Below, one piece after another: positions 46,725-59,771 of a DNA stretch of 64,000 bases. The stretch's first letter is position 1. Each line of letters begins with the position of its first letter. Below the pieces are notes generated by a model that saw nothing but the letters and a program-made list of their open reading frames with translations, did no database searches and was not told the DNA's origin. Made by a program: the position numbers and the translations under genes. This stretch comes from Veillonellales bacterium. Its GTDB lineage: Bacteria > Bacillota > Negativicutes > JAAYSF01. The stretch covers positions 47,278 through 111,277 of the forward strand of contig JBDKTO010000117.1 in NCBI GenBank assembly GCA_039680175.1, given 5' to 3'.

Positions 46725-46934
46725 AGGGGCTGTGAGCCTAGGGCGATGAGCCATGGGCTATTGGTTAGGCGCTTTCTCAGAGTTGTCATTTGCGAGGCGT
46801 CAGCCGCGGCGATCTCAAAACGGCAAGCGGCAGCCTGGAACCGGGAGATTGCTTCGCTGCGGCTCGCAATGACAGAATTTAGAGCCGAATGCCTTAAGCC
46901 AACAGCCAATCGCCCCCAAAAGGAGGTAACCGCT

Positions 46935-47078
46935 ATGGATCAATTGCTTGGTTATGCGGCCAATTATGGTTTTCCCATGATGATTTCCGTATACTTACTG
47001 GTACGCATCGAAGGGAAGCTGGAACAGCTGGCTGCCAGTATCAATGAACTGAGCAAAGTAATAGCTGAAAAATTGTAA
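46935..47078 (+). CDS. YvrJ-family small protein
   Basis: 47 aa MDQLLGYAANYGFPMMISVYLLVRIEGKLEQLAASINELSKVIAEKL. The upstream part of the ORF-track ORF (from 46746) is a repeat element, so the internal start is used. Confidence 0.5.
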   Translation: MDQLLGYAANYGFPMMISVYLLVRIEGKLEQLAASINELSKVIAEKL

Positions 47079-47515: not shown

Positions 47516-47849
47516 GTTGGGTTATCCTTTCTTGAGGTAAATGGAAAACTTTATTACTATTCGACAATCTTTGCATTTTTCCTGTTGGCACGGGCGGGAA
47601 GGGAGACAGACGGACACACCCCGCCCTTCGTGCCATTCCCCTCTTTTTAGAGGGGAATGGCACGACTTGAATCCTGGATTCCCGGAAATACATAACGAGG
47701 TGGCTTCAACCCCTTGTCATTGCTAAAAACTGGCATCGTTATGTATTTTTTACTCATAACGATGTACTTGCTATATCAAAATACCGGAAAGTCTTGACTT
47801 TGCCGAACATTTTAGAAAACTTCGATATGAGTAAGCGGGAATCCAGGTT

Positions 47850-47948
47850 GAATCCCCTCTAGAAAGATAGATGAGACTCGAAACCGCGCCTTTCGGTTTC
47901 GTTAGTCGAATTATACAGAGTGGGGGTGGCGCGTAGCGACGGGGTGTG
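47850..47948 (-). repeat. MITE-like composite repeat (inverted orientation relative to the 14245 copy)
   Basis: cccctctagaaagatagatgagactcgaaaccgcgcctttcggtttcgttagtcgaattatacagagtgggggtggcgcgtagcgacggggtgtgt. Confidence 0.55.
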
Positions 47949-48049
47949 TAAATCTCTGCCCGCTTTGCAGGATTTACGTCTGCCTTTTACGAATAATGGA
48001 ATGATAACAAGCGCCGCTCTTGGTGGTGGTTGTAAAGGAGTGGCAGTGA

Positions 48050-50212: not shown

Positions 50213-50460
50213 GGCGGGGGACGTAACACACCCCGCCCTACGGGAACCCCCACTCTGTATAATTCGACTTACGAAACCGAAAGGCGCGGGTTCGAGTCTC
50301 ATCTATCTTTCTAGAGGGGACTACACCCCCTCTACACTGTATAGTTCGACTGACGAAACCGAAGTGCGTAATTTGGAGTTTTATTTATCTTTCTAAGGGG
50401 AATAGGCAGGGGGATAAATCCCCTCTAAAAAGAGGGGTGGCGCGAAGCGACGGGGTGTGT
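50213..50460 (+). repeat. Tandem/nested copies of the MITE-like composite repeat
   Basis: Two consecutive ..cactctgtataattcgact.acgaaacc...tctatctttcta..gggga units, then the cccctctaaaaagaggggtggcgcgaagcgacggggtgtgt end. Confidence 0.55.
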
Positions 50461-50541
50461 AAAATGTCTATCTACTATAATCGTGTGCCGGTACGTGGTT
50501 GTGCGTGAGAGCGCGGGAACGAACAAGAAGGGGGGCTCGCG

Positions 50542-51201: not shown

Positions 51202-51297
51202 TAAAAAAATTTTAAAAAGTAAAAAGAACACTTGTTCTATACGAGAGCTTATGATATAATTATTTTAAAGACAACCCATTCTTGATAAAGGGGTGTA

Positions 51298-51792
51298 TTG
51301 CGGATGACGGATGAGAACGTAAAACTTATTTTAGAAAAACTGGATTTTATTGCTGCCGATGTATCCGGATTGAAGACCGACGTATTGGAACTGAAAATGG
51401 ATGTATCCGGATTGAAGAATGACGTATCGGAGCTGAAAACGGATGTATCCGGATTGAAGAGTGATGTATCGGAGCTGAAAACGGATGTATCCGGATTGAA
51501 GAGTGACGTATCGGAGCTGAAAACGGACGTATCCGGATTAAAGACTGATGTATCCGGATTGAAAGGAGATATTTTAGGCCTCAAAGAGGATGTCGTGAGG
51601 CTGGATGGAAAAATTGATCATTTTGTCGCCGAACAGCAAAAAGATGTTGTGGTTTTGCTGAATATTATGAACACAAAACTGGATAAACAGTCCGAAATAT
51701 TAAAGATACTTTCCACCCGTTCCATAGAACAGGAAGCGGATATTGCTCTTTTAAAAAAGTTTAAAGAAAAGCTAAAAACAGAATGCGCTTAG
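51298..51792 (+). CDS. Tandem-heptad-repeat protein (DVSGLKT/DVSELKT x ~11). Hypothetical.
   Basis: 164 aa. Nucleotides 51355-51590 are near-perfect 21/42-nt tandem repeats. The opposite-strand ORF 51249..51584 is a shadow of the same repeats. The C-terminal LDGKIDHF..LKK tail resembles that of ORF 53118..53516. Confidence 0.5.
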   Translation: MRMTDENVKLILEKLDFIAADVSGLKTDVLELKMDVSGLKNDVSELKTDVSGLKSDVSELKTDVSGLKSDVSELKTDVSGLKTDVSGLKGDILGLKEDVVRLDGKIDHFVAEQQKDVVVLLNIMNTKLDKQSEILKILSTRSIEQEADIALLKKFKEKLKTECA

Positions 51793-51821
51793 CTGCATTC
51801 TGTTTTTATATGATGAAAATA

Positions 51822-52433
51822 TTAGCCTAACGCTTCAATAAACGCTTTGACCACATCCTGGTCAAAAGCCGTTCCTGACAGGCTTAAGAGTTCCCGTTCC
51901 GCTTCTTCCTTGGTTTTTACCCAGTGCTCGGTACAAGGATTGATATAGCGGTCATAGTGGTTGACGACAGAAATAATACGAGCGCCAAGGGGAATGTTTA
52001 CTCCTTTAAGTCGTTTTGGATAGCCCTTGCCGTCCCAGCGTTCGTGGTGATAACGGATATAGGGAATGATTTCCTGGCAGGAAGCGATATTTTCCAGCAT
52101 GCAGCTGCCTGCGTTGCAATGGTTTTTATATACGCTCTTTTCCCGGGTGGAGAAGTAGGGGATTTTCGCCAGTACGGCATTCGGTACGGTAAGATGGCCG
52201 ACATCGTGAAGCAGGGCACCTACCCGGATCCGTTCAATTTCGCTCCGGGGAAGACGCATTTTAGCAGCAACACTCACAGCATAATTTGCAACCTGCTGGC
52301 TGTGCAAGTGCAATTTTGAATTTTTCAATTCAATCAGGTGCATAAGAGTGGCGATTACATTGTTCAACGTTTCGGTTTCACTGGTATAAGCTTCAGGATC
52401 TTGCATAAGTGTCAGCATAGACATGACCAACAA
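51822..52433 (-). CDS. HD-GYP domain phosphohydrolase (putative c-di-GMP phosphodiesterase)
   Basis: HD motif (GALLHDVGH) and the HD-GYP signature HHERWDGKGYP. 203 aa. Confidence 0.8.
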   Translation of the reverse strand: MLVMSMLTLMQDPEAYTSETETLNNVIATLMHLIELKNSKLHLHSQQVANYAVSVAAKMRLPRSEIERIRVGALLHDVGHLTVPNAVLAKIPYFSTREKSVYKNHCNAGSCMLENIASCQEIIPYIRYHHERWDGKGYPKRLKGVNIPLGARIISVVNHYDRYINPCTEHWVKTKEEAERELLSLSGTAFDQDVVKAFIEALG

Positions 52434-52578
52434 ACGCCTTTCGTCATAAAATCACGTATTATTTAAGGTTAGCCATAAAACAACATAATCCTGCCGGGAG
52501 ATTAAAAAAATATATATTTTCCCTAAAAGACAACAAAAATTCTGGCAATTAGTCGGACAATATTAGTATAATAGAGAT

Positions 52579-52632
52579 GGGCTGTGGGCTGTGGGCTGTG
52601 GGCTGTGGGCCAAGTGCCAAGTGCCAATCGCC
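52579..52632. repeat. Heptanucleotide tandem repeats (GGGCTGT)x4 followed by (GCCAAGT)x2-3
   Basis: gggctgtgggctgtgggctgtgggctgtgggccaagtgccaagtgccaatcgcc, directly upstream of the yvyF-like gene. Confidence 0.7.
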
Positions 52633-52661
52633 AATATTACTTCACACGGGAGGAATTCATC

Positions 52662-53066
52662 ATGGGTTTGAAAAATTGTCCGGAATGCGGCCGGTTGTTT
52701 GTTGATAATCTTACGGGAATGTGTATTGATTGCTATAAACAGGTGGAAGAGGATGAGTTAACGGTAGCGAATTATCTGCGGGAAGTGCGGAAAGCATCCC
52801 TGGAGCAAATCCATGAGGCCACTGGTGTAAAGGAAAAAATCATTTTGCGGATGATCAGACGGGGCCGCATTACCAGCGATTTCTACGTTACCTATCCCTG
52901 CGAAACCTGCGGTGCTCCCATCCATGAAGGTCGGGTATGTCCGGCTTGCAGCAAGAATATTCTGGATCAGGTACACGCTGACAAGGAAAAACCGCCACAG
53001 AAGAACAAACTGAATACATTGAATGCGGAACGGATGTACCAGGAGAGAGTGCGGAATAAAAATTAG
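52662..53066 (+). CDS. Flagellar operon zinc-ribbon protein (YvyF/TIGR03826-like)
   Basis: Two CxxC pairs (CPECG...CIDC and CETCG...CPAC). ~135 aa from the internal Met. Position upstream of flgM matches Bacillus yvyF. Confidence 0.55.
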   Translation: MGLKNCPECGRLFVDNLTGMCIDCYKQVEEDELTVANYLREVRKASLEQIHEATGVKEKIILRMIRRGRITSDFYVTYPCETCGAPIHEGRVCPACSKNILDQVHADKEKPPQKNKLNTLNAERMYQERVRNKN

Positions 53067-53117
53067 CTTTGGCACTGGGGCGAAAAAAGAACAAGCGCAA
53101 AAGGAGGGAGTGGGGCT

Positions 53118-53516
53118 GTGGAAGAATTGCTAAAACAGCTCATTGCAGGGCAAAAGCAAATTTTAGGGCGGATGGACCACATTGAAAAAGAGCAAATTGA
53201 TGTAAAACAGGCAGTCGTTCGTCTTGAAAAAGAGCAAACCGATACAAAACAGGCAGTCGTTCGTATTGAGAAAGAGCAGAGCGATACAAAACAGGCAATG
53301 GCCCGTATGGAAAAAGAGCAAGCTGATATAAAACAGGCAGTCGTTCGCATGGAAAATCAGCATGGTGAAAAATTAGCGGCGCTTTATGATGCCCGCGAAG
53401 TCCAATTGGACGTCAATGAGCGAATTTTTGACAGCCTAAACCGGATTGAAGGAAAAATAGACCGGATTTCTCTAAAGGTATCATCCCACGAAACCTTGCT
53501 CAAAAAAGTAAAATAA
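53118..53516 (+). CDS. Tandem-repeat coiled-coil protein (EKEQxDxKQAVVR x4). Hypothetical.
   Basis: 132 aa with 39-nt tandem repeats. GTG start. The opposite-strand ORFs (53063..53350, 53163..53363) are repeat shadows. Confidence 0.45.
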   Translation: MEELLKQLIAGQKQILGRMDHIEKEQIDVKQAVVRLEKEQTDTKQAVVRIEKEQSDTKQAMARMEKEQADIKQAVVRMENQHGEKLAALYDAREVQLDVNERIFDSLNRIEGKIDRISLKVSSHETLLKKVK

Positions 53517-53667
53517 CCAAAACGGCAGATAAAATACTGAGCAAATCCGCTGAAAATACCGCTGAAAATAAAAATTTTAAAAATATTTCATGGCAGGGGT
53601 TAATATCCCTGCCATTTTTGTCGATAGTAATAACAGAGAAGTATCTGAAGTGCGCGAGGTGTTTAAA

Positions 53668-53961
53668 ATGAATGTGAACCAAATTAAAAATGTCATGAAA
53701 GTGTATGGCGAACAAACTAAAACGGCGAAAACCGCAGGCACGGGAAAAACAAGTCCAACCCAGAAAAAAGACGAAGTCATTCTGTCTCCCCAGGCTCAGG
53801 AATTCGGTCAGGTTCTGCAGTCGATTAAAGGCTTGCCTGATGTGCGGGAAGCGAAAGTAGCGGAACTCAGCCAAAAAATTAGTGACAATACCTATCAGAT
53901 TCCTGCTAAAGACGTCGCCGAAAAAATGATCAGCCAGGTAAAAGCGGATCGCAATCGTTAG
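53668..53961 (+). CDS. flgM: Anti-sigma-28 factor FlgM
   Basis: 97 aa from the internal Met. The C-terminal VREAKVAELSQKISDNTYQIPAKDVAEKM matches the FlgM sigma-28-binding helix. Confidence 0.75.
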   Translation: MNVNQIKNVMKVYGEQTKTAKTAGTGKTSPTQKKDEVILSPQAQEFGQVLQSIKGLPDVREAKVAELSQKISDNTYQIPAKDVAEKMISQVKADRNR

Positions 53962-57801: not shown

Positions 57802-57985
57802 CGGGCGGGACGGAGAGCGGAACTTAGCACTTGGGACTTGGAATGAGGGGAGAGGGACGGGGACGGAGTGCGGAATTTGGGACTGGGAACGTTAAGAGAT
57901 TTGGAATTGGAAGCTGGATTTTAAGAAGCTTGGCTTTCCCGGAAAGAACTTTCCCATCATTAAAGAGAAGAGGGAATATGTGTTT

Positions 57986-58357
57986 ATGGCTGAGTTACAT
58001 GGATTCAGGGACCTTCGTGTGTGGCAGGATGCTATGAAATTAGCAGTCGATGTGGTCAAACTTGCAGACAAACTACCAAGGCAGGAACTGCATGGGCTAA
58101 GCTTGCAAATCCGTCGAAGCGCGGTTTCGGTTCCATCCAACATTGCCGAGGGGTGGGGCAGAAAGAGGGATAAAGAATTTTGTTATTTTATTGATATTGC
58201 TTATGGAAGTCTGTGTGAAGTAGAGACACAATTAGAATTAGCTTTGCGTTGTTATGGGATGGAAATTAATGATATAATAATCCAGTGTAATGGTATACAA
58301 AAACAGCTTCGGGCTTTGCGAAAAAAGATTGAGGAACGAGTACAGGGAAAGGGGTAA
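57986..58357 (+). CDS. Four-helix-bundle protein (rRNA-intervening-sequence-type, TIGR02436-like)
   Basis: MAELHGFRDLRVWQDAMKLAVDV...SNIAEGWGRKRDKEFCYFIDIAYGSLCEVETQLELAL is typical of this widely inserted family. Flanked on both sides by inverted heptamer-repeat arrays. Confidence 0.7.
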   Translation: MAELHGFRDLRVWQDAMKLAVDVVKLADKLPRQELHGLSLQIRRSAVSVPSNIAEGWGRKRDKEFCYFIDIAYGSLCEVETQLELALRCYGMEINDIIIQCNGIQKQLRALRKKIEERVQGKG

Positions 58358-58713
58358 TGAGAAGTTGGCACTTGGGACCTGAAAATTGGAAATTGGTAAG
58401 GAGAGACGGTGCGAAGAGTTGGAACTTGGCACCTGGCAAGAAGAAACGGGTATTAAGGACTGGGGACTGCACTTAGCATTTGGCACCTGGGACTTGGTAA
58501 GAATTCTAAGTGCGAAATACTAAGCACCGGCCGGGCCACTCAGTGTGTTCTTTCGTTTTTCGTGTTTCCCCAAGTTCCAAGTCCTAAGTACCAAATTCCG
58601 CTTTTTCCCCGTTCCACTCTTTCCTTCGTTCCCCTTCCAAGTCCCCATTACCAAGTTCCAAGTCCCGTTTTCCCCCAAGTCCCCATTACCAATCCCGAAT
58701 AGGAGGCCTACCC

Positions 58714-59172
58714 ATGCTTATTCACTCTACCCGCTTCGGCGACATTGACGTTCCCGCAGAACAAATACTTCAGTTTCCTCATGGAATACCCGGTTTTCCG
58801 GCGGAAAAGGTTTTTGCTTATCTGGTACGGGACAAGAAAAGTCCTTTTTCTTTTTTACAGTCAGCTTCCGATCCGAATCTGACTTTTTTATTGGCGGAAC
58901 CGTTTACTTTTTTCAATGATTATGAATTTGCGCTTGATGACGGAATTGCTCAGGAAATGGGGTTGTCGGAGGAAAATCCGCCTCAGATTTTTACCATGGC
59001 GACGCTGAAAGGCAAGCTGGAAGACATGACGGTGAATCTCTTGGCGCCACTAGTCATCAACACCAAGGAGCGCACCGGCAGGCAAATCATTCTGGATCGG
59101 TCCCAGTATTCAACCCGCCAGAAATTATTTCCCAACGGCTTGCCCCAGCAAGCTGCCAAAGGGGGTAAATAA
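58714..59172 (+). CDS. fliW: Flagellar assembly factor FliW
   Basis: MLIHSTRFGDIDVPAEQILQFPHGIPGFP is the canonical FliW N-terminus. 152 aa. Confidence 0.9.
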   Translation: MLIHSTRFGDIDVPAEQILQFPHGIPGFPAEKVFAYLVRDKKSPFSFLQSASDPNLTFLLAEPFTFFNDYEFALDDGIAQEMGLSEENPPQIFTMATLKGKLEDMTVNLLAPLVINTKERTGRQIILDRSQYSTRQKLFPNGLPQQAAKGGK

Positions 59173-59173
59173 G

Positions 59174-59410
59174 ATGCTGGCACTTACTCGCAAGACCGGT
59201 GAACGGATTGTCGTCGGCGATAACGTGGTTATTACCATTTTCGATATCAAAGGCGATAGCGTCCGCTTGTCCATTGAAGCTCCCAAAGAAGTGAAAGTCT
59301 ACCGCGGCGAACTCTTCGACGCCATCGCCGCCGAGAATAAGCAGGCCGCCGTCCTGAATGACCTGGAAGGACTGGCGGGGATTAAGAGACGGGATGAGAG
59401 CGGGACTTAG
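59174..59410 (+). CDS. csrA: Carbon storage regulator CsrA
   Basis: MLALTRKTGERIVVGDNVVITIFDIKGDSVRLSIEAPKEVKVYRGEL. 78 aa. Confidence 0.9.
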   Translation: MLALTRKTGERIVVGDNVVITIFDIKGDSVRLSIEAPKEVKVYRGELFDAIAAENKQAAVLNDLEGLAGIKRRDESGT

Positions 59411-59437
59411 TATTGGGGACTGGGAAATTGGAAATTA

Positions 59438-59492
59438 GGACTTGGGACTTGGAATTCAGTTTCCATTACCAAGTTCCAAGTCCCGCTTTTTT
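59438..59492 (+). terminator. Probable intrinsic terminator after csrA, formed by inverted heptamer repeats (ggacttgggacttgg ... ccaagttccaagtcc + TTTTTT)
   Basis: 15-nt arms with one mismatch, a 16-nt loop and a T-run. Confidence 0.5.
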
Positions 59493-59771
59493 CAGTCTCC
59501 TGCTTGTCATCGCGAGGCGTAAGCCGCGGCGATCTCAAAGCCGGAGAGGCGTCAGGAAGAGCGAGATTGCTTCGCTGCCGCTCGCAATGACAGAATATTC
59601 ATTCAAGTCCCCACTGCCAAGTCCCAAGAGCTCTTTACCGCCTTATTCCAAGTGCCAATTACCAAGTCCCATCTTCCCGTTCCCCCCCCAAGTTCCAAGT
59701 CCCCATTACCAAGTTCCGTTTCCCTCGTCCCCCCATTTCCAAGTGCCAAAAAAAAAATCCCCGTTCCCTCT

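Follow-up and report, generated by a model that had tools for sequence, protein, structure and literature searches.

The closest studied relative of the proteins considered here is Tcar0761 of Thermosinus carboxydivorans (PDB 5APZ), a trimeric coiled coil that is related to the stalks of DUF3782 proteins and lacks their endonuclease (Hartmann et al., 2016, eLife 5:e11861; PMC4786415). The endonuclease-less family was noted in that study on structural grounds, with no function assigned, and a β-layer motif, [aliphatic]-A-T-K-[polar]-[D/E], was described at nonad or hexad spacing; the paper is silent on genomic context and phage association. Tcar0761 consists of coiled coil only, with long heptad segments on either side of a tandem-repeated middle that is made of 14 MATKDDIAN nonads, and its host belongs to the Sporomusaceae, as does the DNA analyzed here.

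A second point of comparison is the cultured temperate Clostridium tetani phage phiCT453A, which carries two genes of this kind, the adjoining paralogs phiCT453A_02 and phiCT453A_03, each with its own repeats. They reside inside the lysogeny module, which comprises a repressor, an ImmA-like protease and an integrase, and lie between the latter two. The product of phiCT453A_02 is built in three parts, namely MENEKIFELIEKM, three 11-aa repeats, and VIRIENDHGKKLEALFDGY...KHKEVIIKRIK. Lysogeny accessory genes more generally (“morons,” and the sie genes of lactococcal and streptococcal phages) sit between the repressor and the integrase, and the known Sie proteins are membrane-anchored or lipoproteins.

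Here we describe two genes, X and Y, in a window of 64,000 nucleotides from a Veillonellales bacterium, to which all coordinates refer. Y shares the three-part build of phiCT453A_02, and the proximity of X and Y to one another recalls the adjoining phage pair. Unlike the phage copies, X and Y have no lysogeny partners, and their repeat units are different. The first-pass annotation took such proteins to be undescribed, a view that needs some qualification given the structural work on Tcar0761.

Architecture of genes X and Y

Gene X (51304..51792, forward strand) encodes a protein of 162 aa that is identical to the NCBI protein P0001, in which translation starts at the ATG at 51304; an alternative TTG is found at 51298. 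The protein comprises an N-terminal helix (MTDENVKLILEKL), a heptad array and a C-terminal module (VAEQQKDVVVLLNIMNTKLDKQSEILKILSTRSIEQEADIALLKK). The array (51358..51609, forward strand) contains 12 units of 21 nt, of which 11 are good heptads of the form D[VI][SL][GE]LKx and the last is degenerate; as read from the sequence, V occupies position a and L position d. The ORF that was first proposed, at 51298-51792 with about 11 heptads, is genuine. Its periods of 21 and 42 nt are recovered by TRF as well. G-type and E-type heptads alternate, so that the true unit is 42 nt, and at this period TRF reports 4.7 copies with 92% matches. The same peptide is written with different serine codons in X (TCC/TCG) and in protein P0002 (AGT), and hence the two arrays expanded independently.

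X appears to be equipped with its own expression signals. A putative promoter (51232..51260, forward strand) consists of TTGTTC, a 17-nt spacer and TATAAT, with an extended −10 element (TGATATAAT, 51252-51260); it was missed by a consensus scan because its −35 hexamer agrees at only three of six positions. At the other end of the gene is an inverted repeat (51773..51808) with perfect 14-bp stems (100% complementary) and an 8-nt loop, bordered by runs of A and of T, which could serve as a bidirectional terminator for X and the convergent HD-GYP gene.

Gene Y (53118..53516, forward strand) begins with a GTG behind an AAGGAGG ribosome-binding site and encodes 132 aa, identical to the NCBI protein P0121. 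Its N-terminal MEELLKQLI is followed by four 14-aa repeats and a conserved module (VRMENQHGEKLAALYDAREVQLDVNERIFDSLNRIEGKIDRISLKVSSHETLLKKVK). The array (53181..53348, forward strand) is made of four 42-nt units ([ILM]EKEQxDxKQA[VM][VA]R), and a fifth, diverged unit extends into the conserved module. The position of Y and the count of four repeats agree with the first-pass annotation, but the unit is 14 aa or 42 nt (xEKEQxDxKQAVVR) rather than 39 nt. Nor are the repeats near-perfect at the nucleotide level, as had been claimed, since TRF (period 42, 4.2 copies) finds 81% matches.

AlphaFold2 predicts a single continuous helix for each protein, spanning residues 3-161 of X (pLDDT 95.8) and residues 2-131 of Y (pLDDT 94.2). 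X, Y and their relatives differ from the known Sie proteins in having no hydrophobic segment; the maximum 19-residue hydropathy is 0.84 for X and 0.11 for Y. Both proteins also lack the β-layer motif (MATKDD) of Tcar0761, and their middles are canonical heptads, so plain α-helical rather than α/β coiled coils are to be expected. Relatives with solved structures are limited to 5APZ (Tcar0761) and 6H9L, both of them trimeric coiled coils. The X-type profile (see below) matches them at E = 4e-3 and 1e-3, respectively, with a weak likeness that does not extend beyond the repeats. By analogy with Tcar0761, X and Y may form parallel trimeric rods.

Several other identities were considered and rejected. 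The Braun lipoprotein Lpp is trimeric and, like X, a heptad coiled coil whose core residues are small or aliphatic; X also exceeds the cut-off of the Lpp leucine zipper family PF04728 (46.5 bits versus 29.1). However, this match derives from three short repeat-driven stretches, the N-terminus of X (MTDENVKLILEKLD) has neither a leader nor a lipobox cysteine, and its C-terminus (...KTECA) does not end in the lysine by which Lpp is attached to murein. X is likewise not a DUF3782-type stalk joined to a PD-(D/E)XK endonuclease, as it ends 67 residues past the heptads with a helical module. Hemolysin XhlA (PF10779) is matched by relatives at sub-threshold levels only (E = 0.006-0.7), and X and Y have no hydrophobic segment. 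Comparison with the anti-phage defense proteins of PADLOC-DB 2.0 returned only weak matches to SMC-like coiled-coil regions (JetC, LmuB, PbeC, DruC).

Position of X and Y within the flagellar locus

The genes surrounding X and Y in the window encode ComFC, YvyF (TIGR03826), FlgM, FlgN, FlgK, FlgL, DUF6470/YviE, FliW, CsrA and flagellin. For comparison, we used nine related Sporomusaceae loci (L010-L018), which derive from Propionispora, at least six Pelosinus and one Negativicutes MAG. The gene order common to all nine is RecD2-like, ComFC, HD-GYP (reverse strand), YvyF, FlgM, FlgN, FlgK and FlgL, and none of these loci contains a homolog of X or Y. X and Y therefore entered intergenic gaps independently, each as a lineage-specific insertion of one gene, in keeping with the earlier description of both ORFs as extra relative to a Bacillus-like order. 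In the related loci, the corresponding gaps measure 0-190 nt (ComFC/HD-GYP) and about 100 nt (YvyF/FlgM). The insertions have the lowest GC3 of the locus (0.43 for X and 0.40 for Y, compared to 0.47-0.67 for their neighbors except hag). No direct or inverted repeats that could account for insertion were found flanking either gene. Also, no HTH repressor, ImmA or integrase gene adjoins X or Y, marking both as orphan copies.

Other sequences have also settled here. The ComFC/HD-GYP gap of L015 and L010 is occupied by MITE-like filler, and the locus in the window is heavily colonized by additional repeats and by a 23S-IVS four-helix-bundle gene. Within the yvyF 5′ leader, two heptamer microsatellites, (TGGGCTG) x4.7 and (GCCAAGT) x2.7, lie at 52578..52627 (forward strand) and are missing in relatives.

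Between X and yvyF is a gene for a stand-alone HD-GYP c-di-GMP phosphodiesterase (51822..52433, reverse strand; 203 aa; PF13487 HD_5, 8.4e-31), which also matches the phosphodiesterase region of the NosR family (3.7e-41). Intact HD (LLHDVGH) and HHERWDGKGYP motifs in its translation are consistent with the predicted phosphodiesterase role. The gene does lie antisense between X and Y as first reported, but it was not inserted there together with them: an ortholog with 77-80% identity occupies the same position between ComFC and YvyF in eight of the nine related loci (L010-L012 and L014-L018; L013 begins at yvyF). Judging from this distribution, it is an old, conserved Sporomusaceae resident of the locus, ancestral, family-wide and separate from X and Y.

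The zinc-ribbon protein gene yvyF of the flagellar region (52662..53066, forward strand; 134 aa; TIGR03826, 2.3e-29) has orthologs in all nine loci. The stretch between yvyF and Y contains no predicted terminator, and yvyF would be the upstream gene of a yvyF-Y transcription unit. Beyond Y is a terminator-like hairpin (53590-53615) that overlaps a σ28-like flgM promoter, consisting of TTAA, a 16-nt spacer and GTCGATAG (together 53590..53627, forward strand). This element is nearly invariant in the nine Sporomusaceae loci, where it directly follows yvyF about 25-35 nt past the stop codon; in the window it is instead situated 3′ of Y and forms the downstream boundary of the Y insertion. The start of flgM in the ORF list (53590) is too early, as it places the hairpin and promoter inside the gene. 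The actual start is the ATG at 53668, which follows a conserved GAGGTG ribosome-binding site. So corrected, flgM (53668..53961, forward strand; PF04316, 7e-17) encodes an anti-σ28 factor of 97 aa, and the FlgM proteins of relatives have 97-99 aa.

Relationship of X and Y to a superfamily of helical proteins

A similar (L/I)(D/E)GKID tail had been taken as a sign that X and Y may be paralogs differing only in the repeat module. Direct comparison does not bear out the shared tail: pairwise similarity is not significant (BLASTP E = 1.9; tail-only phmmer E = 0.3-0.7), and the RIEGKID of Y and the RLDGKID of X are out of register in the profile alignment, so that the motif is not a homologous position. 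When repeat-less X-type and Y-type profiles are compared using hhalign, on the other hand, they align with a probability of 97.4% (E = 9.6e-12), colinear across 78 columns, whereas the reversed control gives P = 0.037. The C-terminal modules alone score a probability of 17.6% (P = 0.0014). On the strength of these profile comparisons, X and Y are members of two subfamilies within one superfamily; the proposed relationship holds at superfamily level, but the C-terminal modules come from distinct subfamilies.

HMMs that were built for each subfamily without the window protein recover X at 6.8e-21 and Y at 6.1e-36. The consensus of the X-type C-terminal module, AEQQKDV...KLDKQxEILKILSxRSIEQEAEI..LKK, is recognizable in X, as is that of the Y-type module, VRxENxxGxKLxALFDAREVQxDVNERIxxxLNRIExKxDRhxLK...K, in Y. 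Both subfamilies are linked by an N-terminal helix, M-T/E/D-N-E-E/K-F-Q-x-L-V-L-E-x-L or the variant MEELLKQLL. The N-terminus of Y resembles those of P0122, P0123, P0124, P0130 and P0133, and that of X is a diverged form. Homologs of Y number 18 (80-145 aa) and have the C-terminal module in common, most of them without repeats; homologs of the X tail are P0140-P0155 (84-150 aa), including P0140, P0141 and P0143. Another set of proteins (P0003, P0076, P0077, P0082 and P0085) is longer, displays 61-74% identity to X over the heptads only and carries an extra C-terminal domain, the type of which a Pfam search did not confirm.

The pattern that emerges is one of small, predicted all-helical proteins that have an N-terminal motif in common, a middle that varies and is often tandem-repeated, and one of two kinds of C-terminal module. 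Unlike repeat units occupy the same middle position across members. The ATK β-layer motif is present in P0123, P0128, P0143, P0144, P0147 and P0148; many X-type and Y-type members have a single nMATKxD motif at the place of the Tcar0761 repeats, and the X-type protein P0144 has seven ATKDDIANM units. The suggestion that repeat number varies is supported by near-identical DVSxLK proteins of other organisms with lengths of 208, 215, 222 and 229 aa, which differ by heptad steps and indicate that whole in-frame repeats are gained and lost in such arrays. The superfamily has no counterpart in Pfam, NCBIfam or PADLOC, and no significant solved homologs beyond generic coiled coils. Its PHROG counterparts are phrog_15901, which matches Y at 2.6e-7 and relatives at 1e-7 (P0123, P0125 and P0131 are also matched), and, for the N-terminal helix, phrog_25353.

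Genomic contexts of the relatives

The usual home of the superfamily is the lysogeny module of temperate Firmicutes phages, directly downstream of the CI/XRE repressor gene and often followed by an ImmA-type metalloprotease and an integrase. Y-type genes come immediately 3′ of a gene for an HTH_3/CI-like repressor in L002/L028, L003, L019-L022, L029, L030, L032 and L033, at a spacing that ranges from −8 to 116 nt; L031 has a gene for a fused HTH-M78 protein in this upstream position. In L030 and L032, the gene after the Y-type one encodes a Peptidase_M78 (ImmA/IrrE) or similar metalloprotease, and the next ORF in L033 (72 aa) has an HExxH-like motif only, with no Pfam match. An integrase or serine recombinase is encoded within 1-3 kb of Y-type genes. 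Phage contig L032 contains an X-type and a Y-type paralog that share one N-terminus.

The evidence for a phage context is thus strong for the Y type and thin for the X type, which is represented by the lysogeny-module paralog in L032 and by a non-lysogeny phage contig, L037. The remaining X-type contexts are chromosomal, namely capsule loci and a tandem pair by a flagellin gene in Pueribacillus, and leave some room for a link to surface structures.

The relatives share both place and orientation with lysogeny accessory genes, and expression in the lysogen is therefore expected. X itself resembles a moron cassette, with a putative promoter, an ORF, a putative terminator and a GC content below that of its flanks.

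Discussion

The best overall explanation, to which we give somewhat better than even credence, is that X and Y are stray copies of a coiled-coil family characteristic of mobile elements such as temperate phages, inserted singly into a conserved late-flagellar locus. Each protein would be one long α-helix of roughly 20-24 nm, several copies of which most likely form a parallel homo-oligomeric rod. The conserved ends of the protein, namely the N-terminal helix and the last 50-60 residues, would bind partners, and the middle would be a spacer in which whole in-frame repeats come and go, altering rod length with the register kept. The repeats in question are heptads in X, pairs of heptads in Y and nonads, 11-mers or others in relatives. 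In its usual home, the gene is probably co-transcribed with a CI/ImmR-like repressor and so would be expressed in the lysogen, where the family may modulate an ImmR/ImmA-type immunity switch or act as a superinfection or defense factor. In the window, X would be a self-contained cassette in the convergent ComFC/HD-GYP gap, and Y would be expressed as part of the yvyF transcript, ahead of the conserved terminator and the promoter of flgM.

A related reading holds that the two genes are neutral hitch-hikers, recently derived from phages, functionless in their present setting and bound to decay within permissive gaps. Their lineage specificity and low GC3 fit this idea, as do the gaps that are variable or filled with MITE-like junk in relatives (L015 and L010), the repeats and the 23S-IVS gene that crowd the locus, and the separation of both genes from the usual repressor and protease partners. 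Still, we consider this reading unlikely. Both ORFs are intact and have good ribosome-binding sites, the C-terminal modules show no damage (HMM E = 1e-21 and 1e-36), and X retains promoter-like and terminator-like sites. Moreover, the repeats are in frame, and most differences between the G-type and E-type units of X are synonymous, which suggests selection on the peptide.

The first-pass annotation suggested that X and Y could be regulators or FlgM/FliW-like export substrates. In this view they would be cytoplasmic proteins that serve the late flagellar pathway as regulators or as cargo of type-III export, acting like FlgM, FliW or FlgN and recruited beside flgM owing to a joint function. Y is apparently co-transcribed with yvyF and lies immediately upstream of the flgM promoter, with X about 1.8 kb upstream of flgM; elsewhere, the X-type tandem pair of Pueribacillus sp. 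YX66 is divergent from the flagellin gene and near GGDEF-EAL and MCP genes, and the Y-type unit of L019 adjoins cheW and an MCP gene. Such neighbors are nevertheless expected by chance among the roughly 12 contexts, by our own estimate, which is not a computed value, given how numerous motility, chemotaxis and c-di-GMP genes are. None of the nine related flagellar loci includes X or Y, nor does the gene order of B. subtilis; the nearest homologs of the two reside in phage lysogeny modules, and both are predicted to be fully helical, with no disordered N-terminal export signal. Searches of Pfam and NCBIfam detected no FlgM (PF04316), FlgN (PF05130), FliW, FliS or FliT domain in either protein. 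We therefore find this role quite improbable, and X and Y are probably not flagellar components or dedicated flagellar regulators.

Slightly less credible again, and offered as speculation, is a scheme in which the superfamily is a third component of the ImmR/ImmA switch or a lysogen-expressed defense factor whose rod length is under arms-race selection, and in which the orphans X and Y have been domesticated and tied to surface structures that serve as phage receptors. The Pueribacillus pair beside flagellin and the X-type genes in capsule loci are hints of such a link, and X and Y could possibly modulate flagellar gene expression or assembly against flagellotropic phages. Finally, the notion that the ORFs are artefacts, repeat DNA that is open by chance in one frame, is effectively refuted: such DNA is indeed open in several frames here, as seen from antisense ORFs that are clearly by-products, one of 111 aa at 51249-51584 and others over the Y array (53063-53350, 53140-53298 and 53163-53363), but independent family profiles that leave out the window proteins match both X and Y outside the repeats (1e-21 and 1e-36), both ORFs have Shine-Dalgarno sites, an identical Y protein was called in a separate, independent sequencing run (L001), and homologs without any repeats exist.

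For flagellar biology, the outcome is mostly negative: the extra genes do not add to the set of conserved flagellar components, and the HD-GYP gene is a stable part of the comF-yvyF-flgM region in Sporomusaceae. The locus illustrates how single “moron-like” genes and repeats colonize the gaps of a core operon with its conserved regulatory elements undisturbed. The more useful product is the definition of a widespread, unannotated single-helix superfamily, without a Pfam family, whose middle expands repeatedly and independently into tandem repeats of varied unit length. Were the function of these rods in the lysogen to be found, X and Y would illustrate how a host chromosome captures them.

Two lineage-specific genes in a late flagellar locus

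The window, which derives from a Veillonellales (Negativicutes) metagenome-assembled genome, contains two intact lineage-specific genes, X and Y, within its late flagellar locus. Gene X (51304-51792, + strand) has an ATG start, with an in-frame TTG at 51298, and encodes a 162-aa protein identical to NCBI protein P0001 (tag ABFC84_18885). The protein comprises a short N-terminal helix, a heptad array (nt 51358-51609) and a 67-residue tail without repeats. Eleven good heptads of the form D-V/I-S/L-G/E-L-K-x and a degenerate twelfth make up the array, in which Gly-type units alternate with Glu-type units; Tandem Repeats Finder assigns it a period of 21 and also one of 42, with 92% matches. An extended -10 promoter-like site (TGATATAAT, 51252-51260, + strand) and a perfect 14-bp hairpin at the 3′ end (51773-51808) accompany the gene. 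Gene Y (53118-53516, + strand; 132 aa; identical to NCBI protein P0121, tag ABFC84_18900) starts with GTG after AAGGAGG and carries four units of 14 aa or 42 nt, [ILM]EKEQxDxKQAVVR, at 53181-53348 (81% matching), one codon longer per unit than the 39 nt and 13 residues originally reported. GC3 is the lowest in the locus for these two genes (0.43 for X and 0.40 for Y). The first-pass annotation was thus largely right, with details corrected: both open reading frames are genuine, and the neighbors that it listed, namely ComFC, YvyF (TIGR03826), FlgM, FlgN, FlgK, FlgL, DUF6470/YviE, FliW, CsrA and flagellin, are all confirmed.

Scanning of the YvyF protein against species-representative genomes yielded nine related Sporomusaceae loci, from Propionispora, several Pelosinus and one Negativicutes MAG. 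These share the order RecD2-like helicase, ComFC, HD-GYP (on the opposite strand), YvyF, FlgM, FlgN, FlgK and FlgL, and an open reading frame matching X or Y occurs in none of the nine, which bears out the description of both as extra genes. The corresponding gaps measure 0-190 nt between ComFC and HD-GYP and about 100 nt between YvyF and FlgM. X occupies the convergent ComFC/HD-GYP gap, which is filled by unrelated sequence in some relatives.

The predicted stand-alone HD-GYP phosphodiesterase encoded between X and yvyF (51822-52433, - strand; PF13487, 8e-31), whose HD and HHERWDGKGYP motifs are intact, had also been regarded as an insertion. This does not hold, as the gene sits at the same place, between comFC and yvyF, in related loci (L010-L012 and L014-L018), with 77-80% identity among them. 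Because no other protein of the locus is conserved so well, those of the flanking flagellar genes included, the HD-GYP protein is an ancestral Sporomusaceae feature. Judged from sequence, this conservation suggests a fixed c-di-GMP input beside the late flagellar operon in this family.

A near-invariant element, TGGCAGGGrTTAAnnTCCCkGCCnTTTTTrTCGATA, lies 25-35 nt 3′ of yvyF in the relatives and forms a hairpin that overlaps a sigma-28-like promoter (TTAA-N16-GTCGATA); the copy in the window is at 53590-53627 (+ strand). Together with a GAGGTG ribosome-binding site ahead of flgM, it is found in all nine Sporomusaceae loci. The true start of flgM is the ATG at 53668, which gives a protein of 97 aa, and the 123-aa reading frame listed from 53590 is over-extended. 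Since Y sits between the yvyF stop codon and the 53590-53627 element, it was inserted at the end of the yvyF transcription unit, and the stretch from yvyF to Y contains no predicted terminator. On the flanks of X and Y, direct repeats, inverted repeats and target-site duplications were sought; only A/T-rich chance matches came up, and no transposon-like mechanism was identified.

X and Y are divergent members of one superfamily

Database searches with whole X return over 1,200 proteins that carry DVSxLK arrays in a wide range of architectures, among them membrane-anchored proteins, proteins with an extra C-terminal domain, and 216-230-aa proteins of gut Eubacteriales. The heptads dominate these searches, and the matches were rejected as orthologues because nearly all are heptad-driven and their architectures are unrelated. 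At the end of the long DVSxLK proteins, no Pfam match to a PD-(D/E)XK nuclease was found. The non-repeated parts of X and Y are more informative queries. For Y, 18 homologues of 80-145 aa were recovered, most of them without any repeats, which have in common the C-terminal module VRxENxxGxKLxALFDAREVQxDVNERIxxxLNRIExKxDRhxLK...K. Homologues of the X tail are 84-150 aa long (P0140 and P0141, to which exhaustive searching adds P0142-P0155) and follow the consensus MTNEEFQxLVLEKL, a variable middle, and LPTREELxxxVAEQQKDVxAMLxxxxxKLDKQAEILKILSSRSIEQEAEIxVLKK. Hidden Markov models built without the window proteins recover X (6.8e-21) and Y (6.1e-36) and match no other protein of the window.

It had been proposed that X and Y are paralogues with a shared tail. 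The likeness of RLDGKID to RIEGKID is not a homologous alignment. Pairwise BLASTP of X and Y is not significant (E = 1.9), and tail-only phmmer lends the shared tail no support. The X-type and Y-type C-terminal modules alone align weakly in hhalign (P = 0.0014, probability 17.6%), whereas full-length profiles of repeat-less members of the two types are colinear over 78 columns (97.4% probability, E = 9.6e-12; reversed control, P = 0.037). The link between X and Y is drawn from these full-length family profiles only. The paralogue idea therefore stands at the level of the superfamily, but two distinct kinds of tail are involved. Both types begin with a common N-terminal motif, and on one phage contig (L032) an X-type paralogue occurs with two of the Y type, the N-termini of all three being identical.

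Scans of X and Y against Pfam, NCBIfam, PHROGs and PADLOC gave generic coiled-coil matches only, except for phrog_15901, a family of unknown function that matches Y and its relatives. An above-threshold Pfam match of X to Lpp was dropped, as X has no lipoprotein features. Elsewhere in the window, the last ~47 residues (MDQLLGYAANYGFPMMISVYLLVRIEGKLEQLAASINELSKVIAEKL) of the product of 46746-47078 (+ strand) resemble a YvrJ-type small protein in which a short coiled coil comes after a hydrophobic helix; these residues have the RIEGKL motif in common with Y-type proteins, but the HMM scores are marginal (E about 0.3-1).

AlphaFold2 models each protein as one unbroken helix, spanning residues 3-161 of X (pLDDT 95.8) and 2-131 of Y (pLDDT 94.2). 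Neither contains a hydrophobic segment, and the heptads of X place Val at position a and Leu at position d. PDB sequence searches gave nothing significant past GCN4 fusion constructs, and among solved sequences the X-type profile touches only 6H9L and 5APZ. The latter is a fragment of Tcar0761 from Thermosinus carboxydivorans (Sporomusaceae), which was used to define trimeric alpha/beta coiled coils of MATKDDIAN nonads and for which no function was given (Hartmann et al., 2016; PMC4786415). A single copy of the Tcar0761-type motif MATKxD is present in many relatives of X and Y, whereas X and Y themselves lack it. X and Y are placed as additional members in this family, which had already been noticed on structural grounds.

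Repeat expansion in the middle segment

The middle segment of the superfamily is a hotspot of independent tandem expansions. It holds heptads in X, P0105, P0112 and P0146, 14-mers in Y, seven copies of the nonad ATKDDIANM in P0144, 7-residue MDSRFNE-type units in P0129 and L033, and 11-mers (EKMYIDLKGSQ) in phage phiCT453A_02. Near-identical DVSxLK proteins of other organisms measure 208, 215, 222 and 229 aa, that is, exact heptad steps. Serine codons are TCC or TCG in X and AGT in its best repeat match, P0002, so the arrays expanded separately, with the peptide under selection. Searches turned up one allele each of X and Y: apart from the window, a single sample (L001) contains the locus, with 100% identity over 1,179 nt, and a metagenome scan with the X tail recovered one partial relative (L034) and no second strain of the organism.

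Several further repeats lie in the window. The yvyF 5′ leader (52578-52627) contains heptamer microsatellites, (TGGGCTG) x4.7 and (GCCAAGT) x2.7, 3′ of a conserved TATAAT, which occur in none of the related loci. Their CCAAGT is also a motif of dispersed repeats further downstream, which are rich in GGGACTTGGAACTTGG and CCAAGTTCCAAGTCCC in both orientations (57812-57897, 58346-58493, 58568-58714 and 59395-59751). These repeats generate long spurious reading frames and occupy the csrA-flagellin gap and the intergenic stretches next to a 23S-rRNA-intervening-sequence four-helix-bundle gene (57980-58357; PF05635, 3e-32), an insertion that separates yviE/DUF6470 from fliW. On either side of the RecD2-like helicase gene (47846-47952 and 50215-50465) lie an 82-nt inverted repeat, 94% complementary and with a second, 77% copy in tandem, and the 30-mer GGGGTGGCGCGaAGCGACGGGGTGTGTAAA (97%), most of which (GGGGTGGCGCGAAGCGACGGGGTGTGT) recurs in the ComFC/HD-GYP gap of Pelosinus baikalensis (L015, 3002-3206). 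The 82-nt repeat and the 30-mer look like a MITE-like element family that is shared across Sporomusaceae. An Rfam scan of the whole window and a tRNA scan near the 82-nt repeats both returned nothing.

Genomic settings of the relatives

Y-type genes immediately follow, on the same strand, an HTH_3/CI-like repressor gene that faces a divergent Cro-like gene; the spacing ranges from an 8-nt overlap to 116 nt. Two Sporomusaceae prophages or integrative elements show this arrangement, as do a RadC-HTH unit found on four contigs and each of the six viral contigs retrieved from IMG/VR. Within 1-3 kb there is a gene for an integrase or serine recombinase. A Peptidase_M78 (ImmA/IrrE) or related metalloprotease gene is found 3′ of the Y-type gene in L030 and L032; in L031 the upstream gene encodes a fused HTH-M78 protein, so that the protease domain is joined to the HTH, and in L033 a short downstream reading frame has an HExxH-like motif only. 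In the cultured Clostridium tetani phage phiCT453A, two family genes lie between an ImmA-like protease gene and an integrase gene.

Two further associations were observed. On two viral contigs (L029 5672-6739 and L030 5788-6873), a 355-361-aa protein with a type I restriction HsdR N-terminal (nuclease-like) domain, assigned by Pfam for L030 and by close sequence similarity for L029, is encoded 3′ of the Y-type gene, either directly or after the ImmA-like protease gene, which recalls the DUF3782 architecture of Hartmann et al., in which a coiled coil is fused to an endonuclease. A three-gene unit on L019-L022 consists of RadC/JAB (- strand), a 73-aa XRE HTH (+ strand) and the Y-type gene (+ strand), and seems tandemly repeated in L020 (JGI 3300057010 contig); its recurrence suggests a small mobile or duplicating module.

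X-type settings are fewer and mixed compared with those of the Y type, and include the lysogeny module of L032, the middle of an 81-kb viral contig, capsule loci and, in Pueribacillus sp. YX66 (L035 4538-5630), two tandem paralogues next to a flagellin gene. This last pair (133 and 209 aa, rich in heptads of the SxxNGLKSE type) is divergent from the flagellin gene, with a GGDEF-EAL protein and an MCP encoded nearby, and places the family beside motility genes for a second time, independently.

Possible roles of X and Y

The first-pass annotation had envisaged a flagellar role for X and Y, for which we find no evidence of work in assembly or regulation. Motility or c-di-GMP genes do neighbor family members in L004, L019 and L035; because these genomes carry many such genes, a family link was rejected as the neighborhoods are compatible with chance. 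A literature search on ImmA/ImmR with a coiled coil, or on yvyF with flgM, found nothing relevant to X or Y. The earlier interpretation was thus partly right, in that X and Y are real, extra and distantly related, and wrong in its claim on HD-GYP.

X and Y belong to a phage-associated family of single-helix proteins. They would form parallel homo-oligomeric rods, trimers by analogy with Tcar0761, whose conserved ends may bind partners and whose length would be set by repeat number. In phages, the family protein would be made with the repressor and so act in the lysogen, where its target would be either the ImmR/ImmA switch or phages arriving from outside. In the genome studied here, X would represent an autonomous cassette, and Y would be read through from yvyF.
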